From an uncultured Clostridia bacterium (GTDB taxonomy: Bacteria > Bacillota > Clostridia > Christensenellales > CAG-314): a stretch of DNA of 64,000 nt. Under the pieces are notes generated by a model. The model saw only the letters and a list, made by a program, of their open reading frames with translations, was not told the origin of the DNA and did no database searches. Positions 3,915 through 63,921 of this stretch are shown here, one piece after another. Location of the stretch: NCBI GenBank assembly GCA_947625725.1, contig CANQPI010000001.1, positions 22,085-86,084 on the forward strand, read 5' to 3'. Numbering within the stretch: position 1 is the stretch's first letter; every line of letters begins with the position of its first letter. The translations under genes and the position numbers were made by a program.

Positions 3915-4364
3915 CTATCTAATATTCTTCCAATATTTAATTGCGTCCGTCGCCAATTTGTCGCAACGGTTATTATATTTGTTGTCTGCATGTCCTTTGA
4001 CTTTTACGAAACGCACCGAGTGCATTTCTATTAGCTCAATGAGCTGTGTCCATAAATCCTTATTTTGAACGGGCTTTTTACTGCTATTTTTCCAGTTAGA
4101 TTGTCGCCAAGCAGCAATCCAGCCACAATTAAATGCGTTGACCACATATGCCGAATCACTATATATGGTAACAATGCAATTATGTTTCAACGCGGAGAGT
4201 GCCTTTATGACCGCTGTTAGTTCCATTCTGTTGGAAGTGGTATTTGGTTCTGCTCCGTACAATTCTTTTTTGTGAGTGCCGCATATTAGAACAGCACCCC
4301 ATCCGCCAACGCCGGGGTTCCCGGAGCAGGCTCCATCGGTGTAAATGGCGACTTCTTGATGCAT
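3915..4364 (-). CDS. rnhA: ribonuclease HI
   Basis: Start moved to M23 (AAGGAG + 7 nt). IYTDGAC (Asp), NRMELTAV (Glu), YSDSAYV (Asp), GHADNKYNNRCDKLA (His/Asp): canonical RNase HI catalytic set. Confidence 0.9.
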   Translation of the reverse strand: MHQEVAIYTDGACSGNPGVGGWGAVLICGTHKKELYGAEPNTTSNRMELTAVIKALSALKHNCIVTIYSDSAYVVNAFNCGWIAAWRQSNWKNSSKKPVQNKDLWTQLIELIEMHSVRFVKVKGHADNKYNNRCDKLATDAIKYWKNIR

Positions 4365-4871
4365 TTTAATCTCCTTTACGCAATCCTCGCTATTAGCGCT
4401 TGGTCTCATTCTGTGAGCTCTGAATGGCATTTGAGTACGGGGAGTAGTTTCGCGGTGACGAAATGCTATTTGTAATACTCAATGTAGCCAAATTACTAAT
4501 AGTTTGGGTGTGGTGTTGAAGGCATTGGCGACTTTGGGGCTTTTTGGGGGCTACGTGCGGGAATGTCTACAGGTGATCAGTAAGTGCCCATAGCAGCGTC
4601 CGGTTGGCTCCCGCTGTCACTTCGCGTTACCTTGAATTTCATTCGAGGCTCTAATGGAAATTAGAAACAGCGATTGCGAAATTTATTATTGTTGTAAAAT
4701 TAGATGCTCACAAACGCGGAAGGATGTGTATGCGGAAAGCCGACGGCACGGAAGGCTTTCCGCATATGCATCCGACGCGTTTGATTGGGTGGCGTCAAAG
4801 CGCTAATCCTCGTGTAGGAAGATATGTTTAATGTAATCAAACACCTGATGATTCAGTATTCCCATCCAATT
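4365..4871 (-). other. ORF-free spacer between RT and RNase HI; candidate RT-associated non-coding RNA region
   Basis: 507 nt with no RBS-preceded ORF on the transcribed strand in an otherwise gene-dense arm; contains several hairpins. Confidence 0.4.
4714..4780 (-). other. 67-nt extended hairpin (12-bp perfect core ATGCGGAAAGCC/GGCTTTCCGCAT plus two flanking helices)
   Basis: ACGCG-tc-GGATG-cat-ATGCGGAAAGCC-12 nt loop-GGCTTTCCGCAT-aca-CATCC-ttc-CGCGT read directly; only a weak U-tract follows. Confidence 0.7.
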
Positions 4872-6299
4872 TTATATGTTACCTTTGTTTAACAAGCGTC
4901 TAATGTCTATTTGACACTTGGACGTATAGTGAGCAATGTACGAATCTATCGTATCAGGCTCAATAGAATGACAATAGGAAATCTCTCCCGCGAGAGCTTG
5001 TATATCTTTGCTGTCCCAAGTGCGTCCGTTTTTGTAGTCTGTACCCAGTGCGAACAACGCAGTTTTGAGATGCTTTTTACGCTTGTATCCAACCGTGATG
5101 TTATTATCTTGGTTGAGCATCAATCCGAGGTTCCAGTTGCGTCCAGCAGATGAACCATAGCGAATTTTCTTGTTGCTAAACGTGAAAGGAGCACCGGCTT
5201 TTTGCAGGATTTCAAGCAATCCACACAAAACTTTAGTGTGATGTTTATCTTCTTCAATCATTGCGTTTAGAATGTTCCTGAATTTAGGCGCGCTGTCCTT
5301 GGTGATTTGGATTGTTTCCATTGTAACTACGCTGCTAGGATGATTTTCTTTGAAACGCTTGAGCGATGCGGTCGCCGCCTCTTGCTTATCTCGATAAATT
5401 ACGGGCACGTTGTCTACCGAAATTTTGAATATGGGGTAAGGAACGTATCCATTTTCATCGGGATTTTTTACATACTTCAGGCTCTCGACAATCCTTGCGT
5501 GGGACATAATTCGTTGTATTGCGTAATTTTCAAAGTCGAATTGACTCGATAATTGGATGTCGTCTGCGAACCTTGTATAAATCAAGTGCGGCTGGTGATC
5601 TCTTGCAAACTTGGCAATGGAATGGTCGATCGGAATCATGAGAAGATTTGTAAGCATCGGACTTATCGGTGTTCCTTGTGGTAGTCCGCCGTTCAAGAAA
5701 CAAATCGACAAGGCTTTTTGCAACTGTTCGCGCCCCTCTTCTTTTCCCAGAACAAGGTTAAATGGATAGATGAGAGAAAGCATCTTGATTGCAAAATCCA
5801 TCGTTATGCTTCCAAAGAAATCGTGGAAATCAGTTTTGAGAAACCAACGCGAGTTGTTGGCTTGATGTCGCCGTAGCGCATCAATCGGGGAGCGGTTTGG
5901 GATATAAGCAAAAGCAGAAGTGTGGTAGTTTGCAAAGAACGAAGTCTTCAGCAAATATGCCAACGTTCGTTGTGCCTCCATGAGGTCGTCATTTGGCGCA
6001 TCGATTCGTCTCAAGCCGCCGGTCTTTTTGGGTATGGGGAACGAGTGGTAAAAAACTGATTTGTCCTCGGCATCAATAAATTTTTTGAAGTGGCTGTTGA
6101 ACCCCATGAGTTTTCGAATGAGTTCATTGACGTCGACCTTGTTAATTAAGCGTTGCGGAGTTATTTCTCGATATATGGTTCGCGTGTCTCTTGTATCTTT
6201 AGAGGACGTTTCAAAGCAATTTGAATTAACACCTTGTAGCAAATCGTCAAATGAAACTTGCACTTCGCGAGGTTGAATATAATATGTAATATACGGCAT
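4872..6299 (-). CDS. reverse transcriptase, retron/unknown-group (UG/DRT)-like
   Basis: IPKKTGGLRRIDAP, YIPNRSPIDALRRH, FLKTDFHDFFGSI, LPQGTPISPMLTNLL, YTRFADDIQLSS in canonical order; TAGGAG RBS. Confidence 0.9.
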   Translation of the reverse strand: MPYITYYIQPREVQVSFDDLLQGVNSNCFETSSKDTRDTRTIYREITPQRLINKVDVNELIRKLMGFNSHFKKFIDAEDKSVFYHSFPIPKKTGGLRRIDAPNDDLMEAQRTLAYLLKTSFFANYHTSAFAYIPNRSPIDALRRHQANNSRWFLKTDFHDFFGSITMDFAIKMLSLIYPFNLVLGKEEGREQLQKALSICFLNGGLPQGTPISPMLTNLLMIPIDHSIAKFARDHQPHLIYTRFADDIQLSSQFDFENYAIQRIMSHARIVESLKYVKNPDENGYVPYPIFKISVDNVPVIYRDKQEAATASLKRFKENHPSSVVTMETIQITKDSAPKFRNILNAMIEEDKHHTKVLCGLLEILQKAGAPFTFSNKKIRYGSSAGRNWNLGLMLNQDNNITVGYKRKKHLKTALFALGTDYKNGRTWDSKDIQALAGEISYCHSIEPDTIDSYIAHYTSKCQIDIRRLLNKGNI

Positions 6300-6594
6300 T
6301 TTGTATCTCCTAATAAACTACAGTATGGAAAACGGTTTCCCTCAGATCAGACTGCTCCGGAGGAAGCTGGGGTGGGGGCGACGTTCAGTCGTCCGATTTG
6401 CACGTTTTTGCTGAAATCCGCTACGAAAATTGGCTAATTGAATCAGTTTTTGTTGTTGGATAACATCAACGGGTCTTGGAGAGAGCTAAGGAAGACGCCG
6501 CGATGCAGAAGTCTCTTCTTCGGGTCGGATTGTCGCGTTCACAATGCGGTACTTTTAATGTCATTAAAAGCCTTATATAAGAATGCTTTATTAG
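6300..6594 (-). other. ORF-free spacer upstream of RT; candidate ncRNA/leader
   Basis: 295 nt without ORF between E1-like stop and RT start; hairpins at 6552-6570, about 6385-6400 and 6328-6341. Confidence 0.4.
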
Positions 6595-7269
6595 TTAAAA
6601 TGTGTCGATTGCGAATGTAAATGGATTAGCAACGGCTATATGAGTCAGTGCCCCTTGACGAACAAAGTTCATAAAGTTGGTTATTCCAAGCGCGCAAATA
6701 ACGCGTACGGTTGGAGCTACTCCCATTTCAACGTTGCAAGCGGTCACGGGAGTTGTTTCTTTTGCTTCCTCGTGGGTAAAGTCCATGGTACTGATAAATC
6801 CATCTATATCCCTTGGGTTGTTCCAGTCGGCAGCGTAGTGTTGGGCATCTTCTAGTCTCGTTCGGAAGTCAAACATCGCCTTGATCGCGCGATTGAATTT
6901 ATTTTCCGTGGCAATTTGGCGTCGCAAGTCGATGTTGTCTACGCAGAGAAAGACATAACCGTTAAGCCTCACTTTTGGCTCCCAGCCCTGAGAGCAAATT
7001 TCAACGTTGTTTTCGCAGTCGGGATTGATTGCGACTAACATCTTTTTGACTGCCTCGACTTTCGGGGCTCCAATGTCCGAGTTGACAAACATTTGGTTTG
7101 CGATATTATGTGCGACGACTCTATCAAAATCGTAGAGTGTGATTTTCGTAAGACCCAGTCTAACGAGCAGTTCGGCGATGGTAGAGCCTACGGAGCCGCA
7201 ACCAATAATGTGGCAGCGCTCCCTGATTTTTGTTGGGTTGAAGTAGTCTATAGATTTGACAAGATCCAT
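6595..7269 (-). CDS. E1-like (ThiF/MoeB/HesA family) adenylyltransferase, minimal form
   Basis: Start moved to M11 (AAGGAGGTGA upstream; 8-nt gap after JAB stop). IIGCGSVGSTIAELLVRLG Rossmann loop, YDFDRV, CVDNIDLRR, Cys in TACNVE. Confidence 0.8.
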   Translation of the reverse strand: MDLVKSIDYFNPTKIRERCHIIGCGSVGSTIAELLVRLGLTKITLYDFDRVVAHNIANQMFVNSDIGAPKVEAVKKMLVAINPDCENNVEICSQGWEPKVRLNGYVFLCVDNIDLRRQIATENKFNRAIKAMFDFRTRLEDAQHYAADWNNPRDIDGFISTMDFTHEEAKETTPVTACNVEMGVAPTVRVICALGITNFMNFVRQGALTHIAVANPFTFAIDTF

Positions 7270-7277
7270 TGGTAATC

Positions 7278-8138
7278 TCACCTCCTTGGGTATCTCCACT
7301 TATTATAGGGGCTATAATCCCATTCATCGGGTTCTTCGTCGTCGCGCGCAGGAGCATCCATATAGTTCATGCTTGTTTGGGGACTATACTGTTGTGCCTT
7401 TCCTTTCGTCTTCTTTGTGGAGTTCACTCCCAGCGGATAAAGTGGGCGTGGAGTAGGAACAGTCACTTTTTTGCCTGTTTCTTTAATGAAGTTCTCAAGG
7501 GTTTCGCCGTCCTCAAACTCTACGCTTATTGTTATTTCGTTAGTATTGTACAAGGCATTGTATTGAAGATCGTATATTAAACTTGTCACTTCGCCCCTCT
7601 TGTTGACTATCATGAATATGTAGAAAACGTCGTTGTTTTCGTTGGGGGTTTCGAAAAGGTTAAGTATCTTTTTCTGGTAGGCGGTGTCGACTGCCGAGGG
7701 GGTACATCCCATATTGACGTGGCTATGTCCGTGTAGGCGCACTTTATTGAAAATGTCGTCGGGCAAACTGTCGAGCCATTGGTTATACTCGCCTTGGTCA
7801 GATGTGACTGTCGCTTCCGATACCTCGTGGGGAAATGTAAGGATGTCCTCGACAAGAAATTCCCTCTCTGCCGTTCGCGTAACGAGCCCATGCCATTGCA
7901 CTTCTGTATTATAGGTGATTACTAAAGCGTACATTTTTGCATAAGCCTTCGGAGTGAACCGGAGAGTTGCTCGCCGATCATCAAAGCCGTTGTCCCCAAG
8001 AGAAAAAGAGAAGTTGAATTGAGGAATGTCTGTAAGTTGCAGACGCTCTTTTCTCTTTGATTCAAGAAAAGCCTTGAAGTCCCCAAGGAGTTTCTCCGCA
8101 AGTTCGGGAGATGTATCACGTAGAATTTTTTTAGCCAT
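7278..8138 (-). CDS. JAB/JAMM (MPN+) metalloisopeptidase
   Basis: HGHSHVNMGCTPSAVD = HxHx7Sx2D with upstream Glu (FPHEVSE); start overlaps upstream stop (TAATG). Confidence 0.8.
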   Translation of the reverse strand: MAKKILRDTSPELAEKLLGDFKAFLESKRKERLQLTDIPQFNFSFSLGDNGFDDRRATLRFTPKAYAKMYALVITYNTEVQWHGLVTRTAEREFLVEDILTFPHEVSEATVTSDQGEYNQWLDSLPDDIFNKVRLHGHSHVNMGCTPSAVDTAYQKKILNLFETPNENNDVFYIFMIVNKRGEVTSLIYDLQYNALYNTNEITISVEFEDGETLENFIKETGKKVTVPTPRPLYPLGVNSTKKTKGKAQQYSPQTSMNYMDAPARDDEEPDEWDYSPYNKWRYPRR

Positions 8139-11677: not shown

Positions 11678-11875
11678 TCAAAATTCTTGCCAATCGGTGC
11701 ACTTGCCATCGGGAGACACGGCACATATTTGTTTCTCAAGGAGTTCGCCCGGCTCAAGGACAAACTCTCCTTTTCTGTATTTCTCTTGGGCAATTTCCAA
11801 CGCTTCCTCTTCGTTTTTAGCTTCGACAGTAAATCCATCGGTGACTGTTTCTTGTATCCAAACTATAAATTTCAC
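11678..11875 (-). CDS. hypothetical small protein
   Basis: 65-aa ORF, GTG start 8 nt after AAGGAG. Confidence 0.6.
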   Translation of the reverse strand: MKFIVWIQETVTDGFTVEAKNEEEALEIAQEKYRKGEFVLEPGELLEKQICAVSPDGKCTDWQEF

Positions 11876-12263: not shown

Positions 12264-12992
12264 TTACCTTTCTACGAGAATCGAGTTGTCGCTTACTTTA
12301 TTGTAGATGAATGTGCGGTGATTCGCGCCGTCGATGTATTCCGTGTGTTCTTCGTCGTTAACGAGAGGATACATATTCCTTGCCCATAAAATAATCGCGT
12401 CCCGCAATTCTTCGTTATCTTCGTCGCTTGTATCAAACCCTTGCAGAGCGAGGAGCGGTGCAACCCTTCGGAAAAACACCTCGTCGTACCAATCATCGAA
12501 ATCATCGTACTCGTCTTTTAAGTGCGTGTCATAGGGACCATTCTCCACATCGCATTTCATGTCGTAAAAGACATCCAAAAGTGCGGTGCTACGGATTACT
12601 TCTTCGTCGTTTCCCTCTAAATAAGCGCAACATTCATTAACCCAACTTTTTACCCAAGATTCAAGCGAAACATAGCTCCCGTAGAGTTTCTTGATTCGCT
12701 CAACCATATCGGCTTGTCTTCTCGGGATTTTTCCCTCTGCCATAAAAGGTCCGTACTGGAGATAGAGTTCCCGCATCTCTTCCGATTTTATTTTGCCATA
12801 AGGAAGGCTTGCAATTCGAAGCCAGTATGCTACCGGATCAATTTGCACATTCACGATTTTAGCGTTTGATATTTCGGCGTCAGCACTAGATGCCGCGATA
12901 CAAACGCCACCCCTGCAGTCACTGTGACAAACCAAATTTTTGAAGTTGATATCGTCCGCAACCTCTGCGGAAATCATGATAAGTGTTTTCAT
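12264..12992 (-). CDS. hypothetical protein
   Basis: 242-aa ORF, GGAGGG RBS 5 nt upstream of ATG. Confidence 0.75.
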   Translation of the reverse strand: MKTLIMISAEVADDINFKNLVCHSDCRGGVCIAASSADAEISNAKIVNVQIDPVAYWLRIASLPYGKIKSEEMRELYLQYGPFMAEGKIPRRQADMVERIKKLYGSYVSLESWVKSWVNECCAYLEGNDEEVIRSTALLDVFYDMKCDVENGPYDTHLKDEYDDFDDWYDEVFFRRVAPLLALQGFDTSDEDNEELRDAIILWARNMYPLVNDEEHTEYIDGANHRTFIYNKVSDNSILVER

Positions 12993-13010
12993 CAACGCCC
13001 TCCGTTTTAT

Positions 13011-13073
13011 ATTTTAATAAAAGCCCCAGTTCCACCCACCATCAAATCGCTTGAATTGCGGATGGAAGTGGGG
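13011..13073 (-). terminator. intrinsic terminator candidate closing the 14.4->13.0 kb transcription unit
   Basis: 11-bp stem (CCCCACTTCCA / TGGAACTGGGG, one mismatch) followed by CTTTTATT on the minus strand. Confidence 0.6.
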
Positions 13074-13074
13074 C

Positions 13075-13646
13075 GAAATTTGCTGCGGCAACCAGAGATA
13101 TCACTAGTCGACATTACTCGGACTTCGCTTTCTCACTCGGAAACTTGATACGTAATTGCAAACTAATAATAGTTTTTTTGGCTTCCACTATGGCAGGAAC
13201 TCTCCCGTATTAGTTTCCTTGATTACGAACCAACAACTATCAAATTTATTGTCGCAATGGCACCACGCCGGTTTAATTAAAGTAGCGAAGCTATCGGGTT
13301 ATTACGTTGTAGCCCAAAATAATAATCCGTTCACATCTCGCAGTTCGGAGGAAAGAGCGGCTTGTCATCTGCCCAACAAGCGAGGCAGCCAAATGCATGG
13401 CTTAACGTCTTTGCTTCGTACGGTTTTTATGCAACCTTCCGTCAAATAGTTGGTGTGGTTAGCACCTGACTTTCAATCTGTTGCCTTTGGTGGGTTTGGT
13501 CGGAAATGCTCCGCCATCTTCGGTCGCCCGATGTTTTTCTGCTTAAACTATGAACCCATACAATATTGTCCCCGAGGCGTTGCTGCCCTTCTACCTTTCG
13601 GGGAGGCTGACACTCAGCTAATAGGCAGTTTTTTGCCGTCCTTTTA
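13075..13646 (-). ncRNA. 570-nt ORF-free tail of a strongly promoted transcript; candidate large non-coding RNA
   Basis: No RBS-preceded ORF on the transcribed strand; flanked by a terminator; plus-strand ORFs in the track lack RBSs and look non-coding. Confidence 0.35.
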
Positions 13647-13799
13647 TTACCTCTCTGACATAGCTAGCCTGACATCAGTCAGGGAGGCGACGAGCGCGGC
13701 AAGACACCGCGTCGGCTTCTCTCGCGACGAGACCGATATTATTGTGAAAATTGTCACCCCAAAGCGCGGGGCATTCGCGGGCTGTTCATCGAACTCCAT
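13647..13799 (-). CDS. possible 50-aa ORF
   Basis: ATG 9 nt after AGGAG; MEFDEQPANAPRFGV...; below the track length cutoff. Confidence 0.25.
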   Translation of the reverse strand: MEFDEQPANAPRFGVTIFTIISVSSREKPTRCLAALVASLTDVRLAMSER

Positions 13800-13884
13800 T
13801 TACCACAGCTCCTATTACTCTCAGGCAAGCTTCCCGACGATCCAAGCGTCTTGCTTCTCCTTGTTGCTTCGTGGCACCCATTTT

Positions 13885-14064
13885 TTACGCTTTTGATTTA
13901 CGTTTGCGACGAGCGCGGGGCATTCGCGGTACAATCCATTTTCTCCAATTGCAAGAAAATTTGCTGACGCGGTTTCCCTTGCCGTCGCGCATTGGCTTAT
14001 TCAGGCGGTCAATGCCTGCCGTCTGCATATTGTATCTGGCGATACTTCTTAAAAGTTTTCTCAT
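13885..14064 (-). CDS. possible 59-aa highly basic protein
   Basis: ATG 5 nt after AGGAG; MRKLLRSIARYNMQTAGIDRLNK...PRMPRARRKRKSKA; below the track length cutoff. Confidence 0.35.
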   Translation of the reverse strand: MRKLLRSIARYNMQTAGIDRLNKPMRDGKGNRVSKFSCNWRKWIVPRMPRARRKRKSKA

Positions 14065-14441
14065 AATAACTCCTATTATAGTTTCACAATCCTAACGCGA
14101 CAGAATGTTAATCCAGCGAAGGAAGGAGACGCATTCGAGGTGCTTCTGGCGTGTGAGGAGTTTGTTGGTTTAATGGTTGTTTAATGGTTTTAATCAACAA
14201 TAATTCTGAAAAGTGAATGGGTTTTTATCCTAAGAGAAAGGTTCGAGTATTTAAGAGATGGTCGCGAACGCTCATTCGAACCGCTCAAGGGGCTTAGGGT
14301 TCCGATGAAAGTGACCAGATGGTATCCCTCAGGCGGCTTCCCGCCTTCACTTCTCGATGCCCTGAACGTTGTCCAAGGTTCTACAAGGTAGAAATGCGAT
14401 TGTGAATTGCTTTACAGTCCCCAAACGTGTCGTGTAATTGT

Positions 14442-14470
14442 ATTATATGACACAGATGTGGAGTTGTCAA
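14442..14470 (-). promoter_or_regulatory. sigma-70-type consensus promoter (TTGACA-17-TATAAT) with A-rich upstream tract
   Basis: Minus strand: TTGACA at 14470-14465, exact 17-nt spacer, TATAAT at 14447-14442; AAAAAAACTTTCAAAAAAA just upstream. Confidence 0.7.
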
Positions 14471-14490
14471 GCGTTTTTTTGAAAGTTTTT

Positions 14491-14871
14491 TTAAGAATTT
14501 TCTTTGGCTTTGCGAGCTTTCATTTTCGCGTACCAACGGTGTTGATATTCGGCACGCTTACGCCTTTGCTCCGCCAAGATTTCCTCGGCGGTTGGCGCAG
14601 CCCCCGAAGGAGCGGGGACAAGACGTCTGACGGGTGCCGTCAAAGATGCCGCATTGACGACCTCAATGGATGCGATCTCAGCCGCGAGGGCGGCTTTGCT
14701 TGCAACCAAGGTGAGATATGTTGCATCTTCCTTGTCGCAGGGAATGGTGGCGCCGGTGCAGTTGAGCTTGATGTCGACGTGCCCAACGCGGTCGATTTTT
14801 TTGATAAGTTGCGTTACGTGCTTGAGCGCCTTAGCCTTACGCCCAATAATTTCAGCTGTTCTGTTATCCAT
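14491..14871 (-). CDS. hypothetical protein
   Basis: Start at M9 (AAGGAG + 8 nt). Confidence 0.7.
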   Translation of the reverse strand: MDNRTAEIIGRKAKALKHVTQLIKKIDRVGHVDIKLNCTGATIPCDKEDATYLTLVASKAALAAEIASIEVVNAASLTAPVRRLVPAPSGAAPTAEEILAEQRRKRAEYQHRWYAKMKARKAKENS

Positions 14872-15683: not shown

Positions 15684-16436
15684 TTATTTTTTCACCCTTC
15701 TGAAGCCGTCAATTCCATATTTGCCGTTTGTAAGCAGGCGATATGCGACATCAACTAGGATGCGAAGCAAGTAGGTGTCATTCGACACGCGAACCGTCAA
15801 GCGCGCCTTGTTGCTCTTTTTACCATATAGGTCATCGAGATACGCGACGTCGTGGGTGTTGCATCTAGTCAAAGCACAACCCTCGGGCAGTATGTCGTCA
15901 AGTATGCCCTGAAGCAGTTTGACTACTTTGGTATTGCTATCGGGCGTCCCGCCCATTTCGATTTTCTGTGCTGCTTCGCGCAAGTAGTATGTTGTTGCAA
16001 TATCCTTCGCGGGTATGCCCAACGATTTAGCGGCACGCAAGCATAGCAATTGGTTAAGTTTGCTTACGGAATGCGCCCATTCCGTATCGATTTTTGCCCT
16101 CTTGCAAAATGCAAGCAGGTTGATTTGACGCTCTTTGTCGACCAATTCGACCGAAATGACCGCATTGGCGTTTGTCTTGTCGTGGGATTCGTGATGCCCA
16201 AATGTCTTGTATGCGTATGCCTTGATAACATCAGGCACGGCATTTTCGGTGCCTATGAACTTGTCATAAAACGCATTGGCAGCCATCTCGCCATACTGCT
16301 TCTCTAAGGCAACAAGGTTGTCCATAGATGTACTGTATGCCGCGCTGTCGACTGGTTTTTTGCCAAGTATAGCGTTGACCTCTTTGACAGCATCACGCAA
16401 TTTCGCCTCGACCGTTTCCATTGTGATTTGTTCCAT
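15684..16436 (-). CDS. hypothetical protein
   Basis: Start at M11 (AAGGAG + 9 nt); 250 aa. Confidence 0.75.
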   Translation of the reverse strand: MEQITMETVEAKLRDAVKEVNAILGKKPVDSAAYSTSMDNLVALEKQYGEMAANAFYDKFIGTENAVPDVIKAYAYKTFGHHESHDKTNANAVISVELVDKERQINLLAFCKRAKIDTEWAHSVSKLNQLLCLRAAKSLGIPAKDIATTYYLREAAQKIEMGGTPDSNTKVVKLLQGILDDILPEGCALTRCNTHDVAYLDDLYGKKSNKARLTVRVSNDTYLLRILVDVAYRLLTNGKYGIDGFRRVKK

Positions 16437-16461
16437 AATAAAACACTCCTTGAATGTATTA

Positions 16462-16542
16462 GGCAATCAGTTGGCTGCTATGCCATCCACGCCCGCCGCT
16501 GGGAGGCTTGCCTGTGGGCGCGAGGCTTGCATATAGCAAGCC
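16462..16542 (-). repeat. two-hairpin leader motif, copy 1
   Basis: GGCTTGC-tatat-GCAAGCC then CGCCC-[acaGGCAAGCCTCCCAGCGGC]-GGGCG, about 25 nt upstream of the RBS of gene 15684-16436. Confidence 0.6.
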
Positions 16543-16556
16543 CAAAGGAGGAAAAA

Positions 16557-16655
16557 ATGAAAAGGCTATGCCCAAGTGGCACAGTATTGACCGTTACGCA
16601 ATATGGTCACTTCATCACCAAACAAATACCATTGCTTGGCGGTAGAGAATTTTGA
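16557..16655 (+). CDS. possible 32-aa ORF antisense to 16566-16712
   Basis: AAAGGAGG 5 nt upstream of ATG; MKRLCPSGTVLTVTQYGHFITKQIPLLGGREF. Confidence 0.2.
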   Translation: MKRLCPSGTVLTVTQYGHFITKQIPLLGGREF

Positions 16656-16712
16656 TGACTTTTTGCCCGTACATTTATTGATGAACAAATACGTCGCTCT
16701 TTGTTTTAACAT
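16566..16712 (-). CDS. possible 48-aa protein
   Basis: Start at M19 (AAGGGG RBS), preceded by motif copy 2 just as gene 15684-16436 is preceded by copy 1. Confidence 0.35.
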   Translation of the reverse strand: MLKQRATYLFINKCTGKKSSKFSTAKQWYLFGDEVTILRNGQYCATWA

Positions 16713-16733
16713 AATCCGATCCCCTTGTTGTAA

Positions 16734-16825
16734 GGCAATCAGTTGACTATAACGCCATCCACCCACGCCACAGGGAGGCTTGCCATTGTGGGCAAGAGCC
16801 GCATATCATAAGCGACACGCGGCTC
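16734..16825 (-). repeat. two-hairpin leader motif, copy 2
   Basis: GAGCCGC-16 nt-GCGGCTC then GCCCAC-[aatGGCAAGCCTCCCTGTGGC]-GTGGGT, then ..TGGATGGC..CAACTGATTGCCT shared with copy 1. Confidence 0.6.
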
Positions 16826-17265
16826 CCAATATACCCGCATTGATGAAATGCGGAAGGAATTGTTTGATTATGTGTTGTTTGAAGTCTATACATATACATT
16901 ATCTAAAACATCAAAATGTACGCAATGCCCCTTGGGCAAGTGCGTAGTTCCCCTGCTGGCAGATTTTGATAACCGCCACGCCATAGCATTGCTTGAATAC
17001 TATGTGTATAACGGCTAAAAGGGTAGATGTTACGCAATGTACTTCTAAGACCGGCAATGTCCGCAAGCCGCGTTTAGGCTATCGCTACCTGTTGCCGTTT
17101 TCACTAACCGACACGCCGCAAGTCTACACCTATGCGGCTGAACCGTCGCCTTATTGCGTTTAAGGTTACGCTATGGTAATTCTATCGCCAACCATAGTTG
17201 GCTATAGCAACTTGCCGAATAGGTATCGTGCTATTAAAATAGTCGAACTTCTGACCTATTCGTTG

Positions 17266-17329
17266 CCCGCCCTACGCCACTGGGAGGCGTTGCTACGCAG
17301 GGCATAAGTCACCGCCGCACTATGCGGCG
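17266..17329 (-). repeat. two-hairpin motif, copy 3 (more divergent)
   Basis: CGCCGC-atagt-GCGGCG then GCCCTGCG-[tagCAACGCCTCCCAGTGG]-CGTAGGGC. Confidence 0.5.
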
Positions 17330-17344
17330 ATGACGCTCGTATGG

Positions 17345-17494
17345 TTACAAAGTTTCGTTGTATGTGCGCTCGAAGTCATCACGCAAGGCTATGCCTTCGG
17401 CATCATCGGGATTGATTGCAAGCAATGCCCGAATGGCACGCCGTGTCATCTCCTTGGTATCCTGCCGCGCCCTAATCTGTTGGGCAATGGTCAT
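17345..17494 (-). CDS. possible 49-aa protein
   Basis: AGGAGG 7 nt upstream of ATG; MTIAQQIRARQDTKEMTRRAIRALLAINPDDAEGIALRDDFERTYNETL; below the track cutoff. Confidence 0.45.
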   Translation of the reverse strand: MTIAQQIRARQDTKEMTRRAIRALLAINPDDAEGIALRDDFERTYNETL

Positions 17495-17528
17495 TCGTTA
17501 TCCTCCTGGAATGTTGGTCAATCGTCAC

Positions 17529-17599
17529 GCCGTTCGGTTGCCGTTGGACGGTTGCCACTATAAGGGACGAGCCGTCAACCCCTTTAGGGGTTAGGTTGC
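17529..17599. repeat. 71-bp dispersed direct repeat, copy a
   Basis: Identical to 17668-17738; contains GGTTGCC x2, CCGTTGGACGG, GACGAGCCGTC and the AACCCCTTTAGGGGTT palindrome. Confidence 0.9.
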
Positions 17600-17667
17600 G
17601 GCACCCCCCCCACACACGCGAGGGGTGTCGGCACAGCCTGCCCACATAGGCGGGCGCCGTCGTGGTT

Positions 17668-17738
17668 GCCGTTCGGTTGCCGTTGGACGGTTGCCACTAT
17701 AAGGGACGAGCCGTCAACCCCTTTAGGGGTTAGGTTGC
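17668..17738. repeat. 71-bp dispersed direct repeat, copy b
   Basis: 71/71 identical to 17529-17599 by direct comparison. Confidence 0.9.
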
Positions 17739-17879
17739 TCGCGGTGGTGGGTGTTCTGGTCGCCCCCTTCCCCTGCACCCTATCCCCCACCGACGTACGC
17801 ACACGCTCGCGGTGGTGGGTGTTCTGGTCGCCCCCTTCCCCTGCACCCTATCCCCCACCGACGTACGCACACGCTCGCG
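17738..17879. repeat. 68-bp tandem repeat, 2.1 copies; C-rich on plus strand, G4-type motif on minus strand
   Basis: Units 17738-17805 and 17806-17873 identical. Minus strand reads GGGGGATAGGGTGCAGGGGAAGGGGG in each unit. Confidence 0.9.
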
Positions 17880-17896
17880 TGTGTATATGTGTGCGT

Positions 17897-17932
17897 AAAA
17901 AAAATCCCGCAGGGATTTTGCACCCTGCGGGA
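17897..17932 (-). terminator. strong intrinsic terminator after the HTH gene
   Basis: Minus strand TCCCGCAGGG-tgcaaaat-CCCTGCGGGA followed by T8, 17 nt after the stop of 17949-18809. Confidence 0.8.
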
Positions 17933-17948
17933 CTGCGTTTCAACCCCT

Positions 17949-18917: not shown

Positions 18918-19003
18918 CGCCGACGGCGGAATGGCGCAACGGATTTGCAGAGCAAATCCCGTGACGGGCGCGATAACTCACTTCGCGAGTGCATACGCCT
19001 AGG

Positions 19004-19080
19004 CACGCTAATATCCCACTTCGCGGGCGGGCGGGCGCTTGCACGCTAATAACTAACTCTCGCGCGGGCGCGGGCGGGCG
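19004..19080. repeat. 38-bp imperfect direct repeat x2 with GGGCGGGCGGGCG tracts
   Basis: CACGCTAAT at 19004 and 19042, each followed by a CGCGGGCGGGCGGGCG-like run. Confidence 0.6.
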
Positions 19081-19354
19081 TCTATCCTTGTCGCGCGCAC
19101 ACGTGCGGGCGCGCACTTAAGGTTTATTATTTCTTGGATATTTTGTTTGGGAAGTAACGTGGACGTGGGTTGCCTGTCGCTCTTGGGGGTAGGGGGTTGA
19201 GGGTATTATAAAATACTTAGTGGAAATCAAAGATACAAGAGGGTTTGCCGTCGTGGGGTTGGCGGTGTGGTAGTTGCTTGTTTGCTCTCTGGCGGTGGCA
19301 CTTTGCCACCGAACTCGCGGGGAAATAGTATATATAAAAATAAATAATTCGGGG

Positions 19355-19376
19355 GGCTTGCCTCCCTGCGTGGCGG
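19355..19376 (+). repeat. core of the GCCTCCC..GTGGCG motif in inverted orientation
   Basis: GGCTTGCCTCCCTGCGTGGCGG on the plus strand; other copies carry this core on the minus strand; followed by the 9-bp-stem hairpin 19379-19407. Confidence 0.4.
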
Positions 19377-19704
19377 TTGATATTATCTTTTTAGCGTAGA
19401 TAATATCGCAGGGCAGGGGCTATTTTACACATAAATTTATTATATAAATACACCAAAACAATATGTCAGTTCTCCTTCCATCCCACCAAAAAATCCCCGA
19501 CATTTTTACCCCAATTTTCCTCGAAACTCCGTTCGGAGATCTATCGTACACTAGGGAAAGTTTGCTCTCATGCAAATTGCCCTCGTTATCAAATACCCCG
19601 GGGTACAATTACACAAAAGCCCGCACAGTAGGACAAGTTGTCGAAGACGACAAAAAAAGCCCCTTTTATATAGATATAAGTTATGCTTATTTACGACAGT
19701 AAAA

Positions 19705-19750
19705 CTATCTACTATAGGGGTAAAGTATAAGCTATCTACACAGGGGTAAA
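19705..19750. repeat. direct repeats CTATCTAC-N2-3-AGGGGTAAA x2 (iteron/operator-like)
   Basis: 19705-19724 and 19732-19750 in the AT-rich divergent region. Confidence 0.6.
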
Positions 19751-19780
19751 CTATATATTAGTATATTAGAGTACCCAAGT

Positions 19781-19823
19781 AACAGAGAGTACAAATAATA
19801 GTACACACTAAACAGAGAGTACA
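19781..19823. repeat. direct repeats AACAGAGAGTACAA x2
   Basis: 19781-19794 and 19811-19823; additional AGTACAC words nearby. Confidence 0.6.
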
Positions 19824-20002
19824 ATTAAAATAAAAAAAATAAAAGAAAGATTTACATCAGTAAACATATAGTACACAAGATATGCGTATATAACTAATAG
19901 CTAAATACGCGTACTTATATTATGTTTACTAATAAACTATTTAATATTAGATAAATATTAGAAAAAAAATATAAATTTTTCAAATAAATTATTAAAAAAC
20001 TA

Positions 20003-20031
20003 TTGACAAGTACTCAATTATGTCGTATAAT
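20003..20031 (+). promoter_or_regulatory. sigma-70-type consensus promoter (TTGACA-17-TATAAT) for the rightward arm
   Basis: TTGACA 20003-20008, 17-nt spacer, TATAAT 20026-20031, AT-rich upstream. Confidence 0.7.
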
Positions 20032-20037
20032 ATGTAC

Positions 20038-20320
20038 AGGTAGAATAGAGAATCAAGATATTGGATAGAGAGTATTCGCTATTACCGCCGCCTTACGGGC
20101 GGGTTGCTAACTGCATCCTAAGTACCCTTGTATGCTTCGTACCCACACGGAGTTTGCGAGCGGAGCGAGCACCTAAGTTGTTTGAGCGTAACCTCCTCTC
20201 TATCTAAGTACAAAAAGTACGTTTTAGGATACCTTTCCTTTTTAGGGAAGAAAAAATTTCCCCCTACTATAGGGCGCAAATTTTCAAAAGTGCAACCCCC
20301 CTGGTTGCATTTTTTATTTT
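20038..20320 (+). ncRNA. about 280-nt structured leader or short transcript ending at an intrinsic terminator
   Basis: No ORF. Long-range pairs GATAGAGAG(20064)/CTCTCTATC(20196) and ATCCTAA(20115)/TTAGGAT(20224); internal hairpins. Terminator 25 nt before the first RBS. Confidence 0.45.
20291..20320 (+). terminator. intrinsic terminator
   Basis: TGCAACC-CCCCT-GGTTGCA followed by TTTTTTATTTT. Confidence 0.75.
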
Positions 20321-20344
20321 CTACGGGCTATTTTGGAGGCCAAA

Positions 20345-20734
20345 ATGTCGATTTTTTCTGTTCTGTTTTTAATGATTTTATTCCACGTTATTGATGACTT
20401 TTATCTTCAGGGCGTATTGGCTCAGATGAAGCAGCGCGACTGGTGGAGGAAGCACACTCCGGGCGATATGTATCGGTTTGATTACGTAGCGGCTCTTATC
20501 GTCCACGCCGTCAGCTGGTCTATTATGGTCACTCTTCCTATCTTTTTCGCGACGGCTTTCAATCCCCCATCTTGGATGTACTTGTTCATTCTCGTAAATG
20601 CGGTTATACATGCGGTGGTAGATCACGCGAAAGCGAATCGGCGCGTAATCAACTTGGTTGACGATCAGAGTATACATCTCGTACAAGTTTTATTTGAGTG
20701 GTTTTGCTACGGACTTTGGGTTTTGTTTAATTAG
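20345..20734 (+). CDS. DUF3307-like integral membrane protein
   Basis: Start at M5 (GGAGG RBS); HVIDDFYLQ motif and several hydrophobic segments. Confidence 0.7.
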   Translation: MSIFSVLFLMILFHVIDDFYLQGVLAQMKQRDWWRKHTPGDMYRFDYVAALIVHAVSWSIMVTLPIFFATAFNPPSWMYLFILVNAVIHAVVDHAKANRRVINLVDDQSIHLVQVLFEWFCYGLWVLFN

Positions 20735-63892: not shown

Positions 63893-63921
63893 TTGACATG
63901 GTCAGAAACCAATGCTATAAT
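63893..63921 (+). promoter_or_regulatory. sigma-70-type consensus promoter (TTGACA-17-TATAAT)
   Basis: TTGACA 63893-63898, 17-nt spacer, TATAAT 63916-63921; a second TTGACA lies at 63880. Confidence 0.65.

Follow-up and report, generated by a model that had tools for sequence, protein, structure and literature searches.

A conserved three-way-junction RNA in a probable early transcription unit of an uncultivated Clostridia phage

The window analyzed here, a 64,000-nucleotide (nt) stretch of contig CANQPI010000001.1 assigned to an uncultured Clostridia bacterium, belongs to a tailed phage, with a terminase and an integrase-family gene. Its weak relatives are SPbeta-like Bacillus phages, and in related contigs the neighboring genes carry YonV and YonJ domains. 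On the minus strand, a transcription unit of about 1.4 kb runs from a consensus promoter to an intrinsic terminator. An earlier note, based on the sequence alone, had proposed that this unit ends in a large phage noncoding RNA (ncRNA). We find that the unit does contain a phage ncRNA of a kind that neighbors transfer RNA (tRNA) genes; however, the RNA is 99 nt long rather than large, and it lies between a small gene, ORF59, and the start of a second open reading frame (ORF), ORF50, and not in the tail. The features of the unit, in order of transcription, are:

14442-14492, minus strand: sigma-A type early promoter with an A-rich upstream tract, matching the consensus at 12 of 12 positions
14065-14434, minus strand: untranslated leader of ~370 nt, with hairpins and two short boxes in common with the leader of locus L019
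13885-14064, minus strand: ORF59, gene for a very basic protein of 59 amino acids (aa), with AGGAG 5 nt before the ATG and 42 homologs
13912-13929, minus strand: copy A of the 18-nt direct repeat CCGCGAAUGCCCCGCGCU, inside the 3' end of ORF59
13780-13878, minus strand: structured RNA of 99 nt, a copy of a predicted three-way-junction family
13647-13799, minus strand: ORF50, with AGGAG 9 nt upstream of the ATG, probably not a gene
13763-13780, minus strand: copy B of the 18-nt direct repeat, starting at the last base of the RNA
13075-13779, minus strand: non-coding tail with no detectable conservation, no ORF and no excess structure, where relatives carry tRNA genes
13016-13074, minus strand: intrinsic terminator, a 52-nt interrupted hairpin (13074-13023) followed by UUUUAUU (13022-13016)

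The RNA begins seven bases past the stop codon of ORF59. Comparison of the interval with related loci by sensitive blastn returned one match, in which positions 13887-13780 are 96.3% identical over 108 nt to loci L017 and L018. The identity to locus L019 is ~66%, and because the two sequences differ by indels of 1, 3 and 5 nt the segment is not coding. At the same loci, the proteins of the neighboring 260-aa and 126-aa genes are ~54-57% and 41-44% identical to those of the window. The 260-aa gene (15684-16466), which has 62 homologs on contigs of 90-250 kb, was the basis of this locus comparison. Searches from the reverse transcriptase (RT) of the window or from the 242-aa protein encoded downstream of the unit gave no related locus and at most one remote homolog, and no homolog of the 242-aa gene was found among 5.8 billion proteins.

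The window copy can be folded around three helices. P1 pairs 13880-13876 with 13782-13778, P2 pairs CCAC (13874-13871) with GUGG (13806-13803), and P3 pairs 13798-13794 with 13787-13783 around a loop at 13793-13788. At the 5' side, GGUGC and the 4-nt P2 strand are present as GGUGCCAC (13878-13871). The 3' core that defines the family, (U)UAAAUGGAGUUNGAYGAACAGCC with the P3 register 5-20 and 6-19, is present as well, and the invariant 23-mer UAAAUGGAGUUCGAUGAACAGCC is found exactly at 13802-13780. The covariance model R1, described below, has a single match on the window (13886-13772 including flanks, E = 4e-20), and its score of 78.7 bits is within the range of copies in tRNA arrays, 30-94 bits.

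Copies of the RNA are numerous. The bait GGTGCCACGAA-N50-80-AAATGGAGTT retrieved three further viral contigs, and the 3' block TAAATGGAGTTNGAYGAACAGCC was found in at least 120 metagenome stretches and on at least 80 IMG/VR contigs of 11-260 kb; overall, the invariant 23-mer is present in more than 200 metagenomic or viral contigs. Among the matches listed, 143 different copies with a recognizable 5' block remained after duplicate removal, and these range from 59 to 241 nt in length. Within them, the sequence 5' of GGUGC pairs with the sequence 3' of CAGCC to form P1, which is continued by GGU/GCC. The flanks make 3-12 consecutive pairs in 109 of the 143 copies and are themselves unrelated between copies. 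P2 is formed by the four bases after GGUG and the four before (U)UAAAUGG, all of which pair in 108 of the 143 copies. Its pairs exchange among UA, CG, AU and GC, giving CUAC/GUAG, CCAC/GUGG, CUCC/GGAG, CAAC/GUUG, CCAG/CUGG and UGAG/CUCA.

These patterns were evaluated against shuffled alignments. In an alignment of 53 sequences (A4), 93.2% of the cells are paired, against 71% in shuffled alignments, and the covariation score is 0.53 against 0.14; none of 500 shuffles scored as high, and slid registers all collapse. Model R1 was built from A4 and found more divergent copies in the same loci. In the alignment of 74 sequences obtained from the R1 matches (A6), 93.8% of the cells are paired and 213 cells show double changes, against 70 after shuffling, with 0 of 500 shuffles as high.

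The third helix lies within the 23-mer, where position 5 pairs with position 20 (UA, CG or UG) and position 6 with position 19. Above these two Watson-Crick pairs is a non-canonical stack of G.A (7/18), A.A (8/17) and G.G (9/16), in which positions 9 and 16 change together to A/A. In one copy from locus L100 the whole P3 arm is replaced by the Watson-Crick pairs UGGUG/CACCA. The N and Y positions of the core vary because positions 10-15 form the 6-nt loop of P3. The family core therefore comprises P1, the 4-bp P2 carrying a variable arm of 50-120 nt, P3, and an invariant UAAA junction strand. About 25 near-invariant nucleotides cluster at the small junction, and the peripheral stems are free to vary. 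Based on these comparative patterns, we conclude that the RNA is a conserved structured family, with a predicted three-way junction. Two further helices were considered and rejected: a GUU/AAC mini-hairpin in the 3' core, since U10 and U11 vary without compensation, and a P2b helix (GC/GC), which shows no covariation.

The family is found together with tRNA genes. Of 140 loci, 98 carry tRNA genes, 520 tRNAs in all. Within 300 nt of the RNA there are 41 tRNA neighbors downstream and 34 upstream, and all 75 are on the strand of the RNA. In 23 cases the downstream tRNA starts 7-30 nt past the RNA, which is the ordinary spacing of a tRNA array. No preferred tRNA identity was found beside the RNA. 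Many loci contain several paralogous copies with different variable arms, up to five in L100, four of which are in tandem. The same promoter-led unit of L017 and L019 has several small genes first, followed by the RNA, the tRNAs and a gene for a DUF2828 protein; in contrast, both the tRNAs and the DUF2828 gene are absent from the window. A side observation at these loci is that the Rfam tRNA model gives matches of 103-120 nt downstream of the RNA (L017 15324-15441 and 15448-15567; L019 6403-6519 and 6524-6641), with others at L041 1556-1664 and L051 1818-1920; these would be tRNA genes with insertions of ~30-45 nt.

The commonest protein neighbor, ~500 aa long, combines DUF2828 with a DUF7788 domain that is vWA-like. 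Among the 31 loci with 3 kb or more of sequence on either side, 10 encode it. The DUF2828/DUF7788 protein was seen in L015, L017, L019 and 23 other loci, and in L040 its gene ends 30 nt before the RNA motif. Its N-terminal motif is reminiscent of Ro60/TROVE proteins, and a relationship to these was considered; a profile search of PDB sequences did not support it.

The searches for a known counterpart were negative. With Rfam 15, 18 of the loci gave only tRNA and transfer-messenger RNA (tmRNA) matches at gathering score, five loci gave nothing at E<=5, and one 146-nt copy gave nothing at E<=10. A distant blastn search with one family copy found the core in none of 50,697 GenBank phage genomes, and the family seems to be confined to uncultivated phages. 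Text searches of the literature, by sequence and for RNAs of tRNA arrays, found no description, and a catalog of 10,006 csRNAs may still list the family.

Several known RNAs invite comparison. ROOL and GOLLD are multi-domain RNAs of 0.6-0.8 kb, found in phages and prophages of Firmicutes and in rumen and gut metagenomes, often beside tRNA genes with which they are probably co-transcribed (PMC5737381). The present family is similarly a structured phage RNA near tRNA genes; however, the copy here is 99 nt long (59-241 nt in the family), it has a single three-way junction, and the ROOL and GOLLD models of Rfam match neither the window nor the family. Theta ribozymes, which resemble the ribozyme of hepatitis delta virus (HDV), are small RNAs beside the tRNA genes of uncultivated tailed gut phages, on the strand of the tRNAs (PMC10879173). 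They too are small conserved RNAs embedded by phage tRNA genes on the same strand, but theirs is a nested double-pseudoknot HDV fold, whereas the present family has a three-way junction whose closing helix is made by the flanks, and no HDV-like match was obtained. The Rfam models of hammerhead, twister, twister-sister, pistol, hatchet and HDV-like ribozymes gave no match even at E<=10.

A likeness to 5S ribosomal RNA (rRNA), which we take only as a lead, is presumed in the size, the closing helix continued by the flanks, the three-way junction and an arm with a G.A/G.G stack. The words GGUG..CGAAG, AUGG.AGU and GAAC.GCC are, we assume, also common to both. In Firmicutes, 5S genes adjoin tRNA arrays. 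The Rfam 5S model (RF00001) nevertheless matches none of the 18 loci at gathering score, nor the 146-nt copy at E<=10, and in the family the arm equivalent to helices IV/V is cut to 5 pairs and a loop while the other arm is hypervariable. Bacterial Y RNAs are small and modular, one part being conserved and binding protein and the other being variable; they often occur in several copies and are encoded beside a large vWA-containing protein (Ro60/Rsr) and tRNA-related genes. The present family is presumably similar in these respects, again as a lead only; it differs in that the neighboring protein is DUF2828 with DUF7788/vWA rather than a recognized TROVE protein, the Rfam Y-RNA models do not match, and the window lacks a gene of the DUF2828-vWA type. 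The tRNA cluster of phage T4 encodes two small stable non-tRNA RNAs, species 1 and 2, which are processed within the cluster, and we take these to be comparable as small non-tRNA RNAs inside a phage tRNA gene cluster. As every test for ROOL/GOLLD, theta ribozymes, 5S rRNA and known ribozymes came out negative, the family appears to be undescribed; as a kind, tRNA-array-associated phage ncRNAs have precedents.

The unit in which the window copy lies has clear boundaries. On the minus strand, TTGACA (-35, 14470-14465) and TATAAT (-10, 14447-14442) are separated by 17 nt. Perfect consensus promoters of this kind number three in the 64-kb window against 0.04 expected, and all three have an A-rich tract directly upstream. 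In L015, L017 and L019, a homolog of the 126-aa gene (14491-14871) is followed by an A-rich tract, TTGAC(A/T), 17 nt and TATAAT, and each of these promoters leads into a leader of ~230-510 nt. Since the same layout recurs although the proteins are only 41-57% identical, the promoter position is conserved across phages. The leader of the window contains the hairpin AGGCGG-GAAG-CCGCCU (14346-14331), but its overall fold is not significant (z = -0.79). Two boxes, TTCACAATCGCATT (14406-14393) and AGGATTGTGAA (14093-14083), are collinear with the L019 leader, which is weak evidence (E = 0.05 and E = 3). At the other end, the terminator hairpin has 20 pairs and a local folding z of -5.8, and it was missed by a simple terminator scan because the stem is interrupted. 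The next gene, confirmed by exact look-up, starts with an ATG at 12992, 23 nt past the terminator, with the ribosome-binding site (RBS) GGAGGG. No minus-strand promoter-like site was found between 14442 and 12995. Some read-through is therefore required, as the terminator directly precedes a gene without its own promoter.

The other two perfect promoters with A-rich tracts are in the 20003-20345 (+) region and at 63893-63921 (+). The leader of the former, ~290 nt, ends in a terminator-like hairpin, GCAACC-N5-GGTTGC followed by a T-run (~20291-20320), just before the first ORF. Both this unit and the one studied here have the layout promoter, leader, terminator, genes. In the relatives (L015 9970-10460, L017 11660-11920, L019 3290-3830) the promoter spacer holds TGTCTAAATAT, and the inverted sequence ATATTTAGACA is repeated several times in the leaders and also occurs just before the first gene. 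These look like operator sites for a putative repressor. The window promoter has a different spacer and no repeats of this type.

Between promoter and terminator the minus strand has no ORF of 60 aa or more. In each of the three minus frames, TAA, TAG and TGA are all as dense as expected at random, which excludes stop-codon recoding. The plus-strand ORFs of 97, 148 and 114 aa have no RBS and the codon usage of spurious ORFs; a plus-strand gene formed by the first two, which share one frame and are separated by one stop, is ruled out on the same grounds.

An exhaustive HMMER search found 42 homologs of ORF59 (E<=1e-3) with lengths of 41-90 aa and identities of 43-65%, where a word-indexed search had found no match. 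They share the motif MRKxLRSIARxNM..G...NK......S.F..NW, with R6, A9, S34, F36 and W40 invariant, and ORF59 has both this motif and a length within the 40-90 aa of the family. In unrelated phages the homologs are found closely packed with other small genes of the early or replication type. No Pfam or PHROG family matched ORF59 or its homologs. The codon score of ORF59 is low, which can occur for a short, very basic protein. From its conservation, we conclude that ORF59 is a real gene, belonging to a conserved, unnamed family of small phage early proteins. A link between this family and the structured RNA was considered and rejected, as it was found in 0 of 205 other loci. Thus, with respect to the promoter, the leader hairpin, the terminator, the absence of longer frames, the implausible plus-strand ORFs and the 59-aa basic ORF, the description in the earlier note is borne out.

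The possible 50-aa ORF listed in the same note fares differently. The AUG of ORF50 is positions 4-6 of the invariant 23-mer, its first seven codons lie inside the invariant core, and its putative Shine-Dalgarno (SD) sequence falls in the variable arm. In other copies of the RNA, the frame that opens at this AUG closes after 7-32 unrelated codons. Variation in the 23-mer tracks the P3 loop and helix positions and not codons. The codon score (-0.025) is intermediate between those of real and spurious ORFs, and no Pfam or PHROG family matches. Because the AUG is part of the invariant core and the frame closes early elsewhere, ORF50 is most likely a by-product of the AUG in the RNA and probably not a gene. 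Other gene calls that start at this AUG are likely to be false for the same reason. We also considered that the 23-mer encodes a conserved peptide, ME(F/L)DEQP, as the first six copies varied at third codon positions. This was ruled out by more divergent copies, which vary along the P3 helix and loop and change the peptide, and by the closure of the frames after 7-32 codons.

The window copy is bracketed by the perfect 18-nt direct repeats A and B, an exact repeat expected by chance within 1.5 kb with E = 0.002. The homology to L017 starts at the stop codon of ORF59 and ends exactly where copy B begins. Removing the 149 nt between the repeat copies would leave ORF59 ending in ...PRMPRALG-stop. 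Three features together point to a recent transplantation of the RNA copy into its present position: it is nearly identical to the copy in a distant relative, repeats bracket it, and its closing helix is shortened. Four IMG/VR matches to the 18-mer, which might have marked it as a conserved motif, are due to chance. One unit of a further 13-nt direct repeat, CCGCGCUCGUCGC (13918-13906 and 13699-13687, minus strand), overlaps copy A at its 3' end, and the other is 219 nt farther downstream, within ORF50. This suggests that more than one rearrangement may have occurred in this GC-rich patch.

Downstream of the RNA, the tail is without recognizable content. No SD-preceded ORF of 10 aa or more was found on the minus strand downstream of ORF50, in agreement with the ~570 nt said earlier to lack any RBS-preceded ORF. 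Without the terminator, the fold of the tail has z = -0.74, with 19 of 100 shuffles as good, and coding controls range from -0.59 to +0.63. Local windows of 120 nt give z between -1.9 and +1.0. The value of -3.06 for the whole tail including the terminator is due to the terminator hairpin. GenBank phages, plasmids, 20-mer scans of IMG/VR and 1.47 Mb of sequence from related loci all gave no similarity to the tail, which leaves no homologs in which covariation could be counted. No tRNA was found in the tail; three weak matches from relaxed ARAGORN, considered as vestigial tRNAs, were judged not to be above the background (0.58, maximum 2). The tail is most likely a non-functional spacer left where relatives have tRNA genes.

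Taken together, we favor, with a probability of about 0.6, the reading that the stretch serves an uncultivated SPbeta-like Clostridia phage as an early transcription unit, with the real small gene ORF59, the 99-nt structured RNA and a spacer tail. Host RNA polymerase would read the unit from the consensus promoter with its A-rich upstream element into the long leader. The RNA would then be cut from the polycistronic transcript at or near P1, acting as a processing stem, as its tRNA neighbors are, and would accumulate as a stable small RNA. The invariant junction (the G and UAAA) and the non-canonical P3 stack may form a docking surface for one conserved partner. Candidates, as leads only, are a component of host translation or RNA processing, suggested by the 5S-like topology and the flank-extended closing helix, or the phage DUF2828-vWA protein. 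The variable arm may tell paralogs apart. Transcription would end at the intrinsic terminator, partly read through to express the next genes.

Several points weigh against this reading. In the window copy P1 has only 5 bp, with two flank pairs (G-C and U.G) beyond GGU/GCC where the family definition asks for at least three, and no tRNA gene was found in the 64-kb window, so that the tRNA-array location of the family is lacking here; for both reasons the copy could be a relic. Because the 23-mer served as bait and A4 was picked for at least three P1 flank pairs, the 23-mer and three of the P1 pairs are conserved in part by construction; A6, in turn, was fitted to the model. For the DUF2828 link, the count of 10 in 31 loci has no control frequency beside it, and a profile search of solved structures with the DUF2828 protein returned no RNA-binding relative. 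ORF50 has a good SD sequence and could still be translated. Finally, the tail could be a lineage-specific RNA, as the phage has no close relatives for comparison.

A bolder reading, which we consider doubtful, gives the RNA a biochemical activity of its own. It would be an undescribed, very abundant class of uncultivated gut or rumen phages, either a new self-cleaving ribozyme that processes tRNA arrays or a mimic resembling 5S rRNA or Y RNA that docks on a conserved part of the host machinery for translation or RNA processing, with the differing arms of the paralogs in one array serving different targets. The ribozyme idea may also be stated more narrowly: the family would cleave itself and thereby cut tRNA-array transcripts, like theta ribozymes and hammerheads of other phages, here separating the ORF59 mRNA from the RNA downstream. 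Its ~25 near-invariant nucleotides at a small junction with variable peripheral stems have the look of a ribozyme, there are several copies per genome tightly embedded between same-strand tRNAs, and the tRNA-linked theta ribozymes provide a precedent (PMC10879173). Yet the Rfam ribozyme models give nothing even at E<=10, there is no candidate cleavage site, and the flank-made closing helix is more like a processing stem for a protein nuclease, and for these reasons we regard self-cleavage as unlikely.

It is also unlikely, and we would give it little weight, that the interval past ORF59 is a recombination scar, with the RNA as a non-functional passenger, the tail a decayed RNA-gene island or gene, and the terminator alone functional. 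The perfect repeats around the segment, the end of the L017 homology at copy B, the P1 of 5 bp, the absence of tRNAs where relatives have them and the tail without signal are all as such a scar would predict. However, the RNA core is intact, its 78.7 bits fall within the range of array copies, the identity of 96% leaves too little time for decay either way, and several independent assemblies contain the identical sequence apart from one single-nucleotide polymorphism (SNP).

Antitermination of the lambda N type is a far less probable account. Here the Arg-rich ORF59 protein would bind the leader hairpin (GGCGG-GAAG-CCGCC) and allow the polymerase to pass the terminator at 13074-13016. A very basic small protein is indeed the first gene after a strong early promoter, with a hairpin in the leader, the terminator does directly precede genes without a promoter, and the leader of the promoter at 20003 also ends in a terminator before its first ORF. 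But the homologs of ORF59 lie inside tight gene blocks and not after promoters, the leader hairpin is not conserved in the relatives, and ORF59 has no similarity to any known antiterminator.

Least probable, and very much so, is a large structured ncRNA in the ~600-nt tail, whether of the ROOL/GOLLD type or of a new class: the tail is ORF-free between a very strong promoter and a good terminator, it folds well when the terminator is included and it adjoins an RNA of the tRNA-array type, in a neighborhood that ROOL and GOLLD share (PMC5737381), but it has no Rfam match, folds like coding sequence without the terminator, contains no local window that stands out and has no homolog in any collection searched. 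At gathering score, Rfam 15 gave 0 matches in the whole 64-kb window, with ROOL, GOLLD, HEARO, OLE, raiA and group I and II introns among its models, and at E<=10 the region 12800-14700 gave only chance-level matches to small nucleolar RNAs or microRNAs. The proposal of the earlier note for the tail is therefore not supported, as far as the searches could be run. Two retroelement-related explanations of the interval were also rejected. A template or variable repeat of a diversity-generating retroelement is ruled out by the lack of any long A-mismatched repeat pair in the window. A retron msr-msd RNA is ruled out as well: the interval is 6.7-8.2 kb upstream of the RT (4872-6299) with several genes between, and it has no long inverted repeats at its flanks.

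Apart from the RNA, the transcription unit is ordinary phage biology, made up of a strong early promoter, one small early protein, a spacer and a terminator. The small RNA is the part that matters, given its near-invariant core, compensatory changes, hundreds of copies and consistent place in phage tRNA arrays. Such arrays have been discussed as a means of code switching and as tools against host defenses that target tRNAs. As a companion of these arrays that often comes in several versions, the RNA offers a handle on tRNA-array biology and is a candidate for ribozyme and ribonucleoprotein assays.

Other parts of the window contain features unrelated to the unit. The 475-aa retron-type RT (4872-6299, minus strand) belongs to the retron St85 family (E = 4e-47) and is classified by PADLOC as RT_II-A. 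On the same strand are an RNase H gene downstream (3915-4430) and a gene for a ThiF/E1-like protein upstream (6595-7299). The RT gene is directly followed by a long imperfect hairpin (~4783-4711) and preceded by a 296-nt gap. From its gene content, 3915-7299 (minus strand) is a putative phage-borne retron-like module with an unusual RNase H partner.

A second ORF-poor region, 16467-17948, is GC-rich (up to 63% GC) and ends at a strong terminator (17934-17903, minus strand). It contains a perfect 71-nt repeat (17529-17599 and 17668-17738) and a perfect 68-nt tandem pair (17737-17872), and an 81-nt repeat occurs twice with 74% identity (16461-16541 and 16733-16813). Between the gene arms, 19000-20000 is a divergent control region. 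GC-rich repeats of the GGGCGGGCG type are followed there by extremely AT-rich sequence that includes a 30-nt tandem repeat (19765-19824), and the region may function as an origin or in regulation. The early genes of the phage include one at 11678-11875 (minus strand) for a 65-aa protein of the DpnD/PcfM family (PF14207), which is usually seen on conjugative elements.

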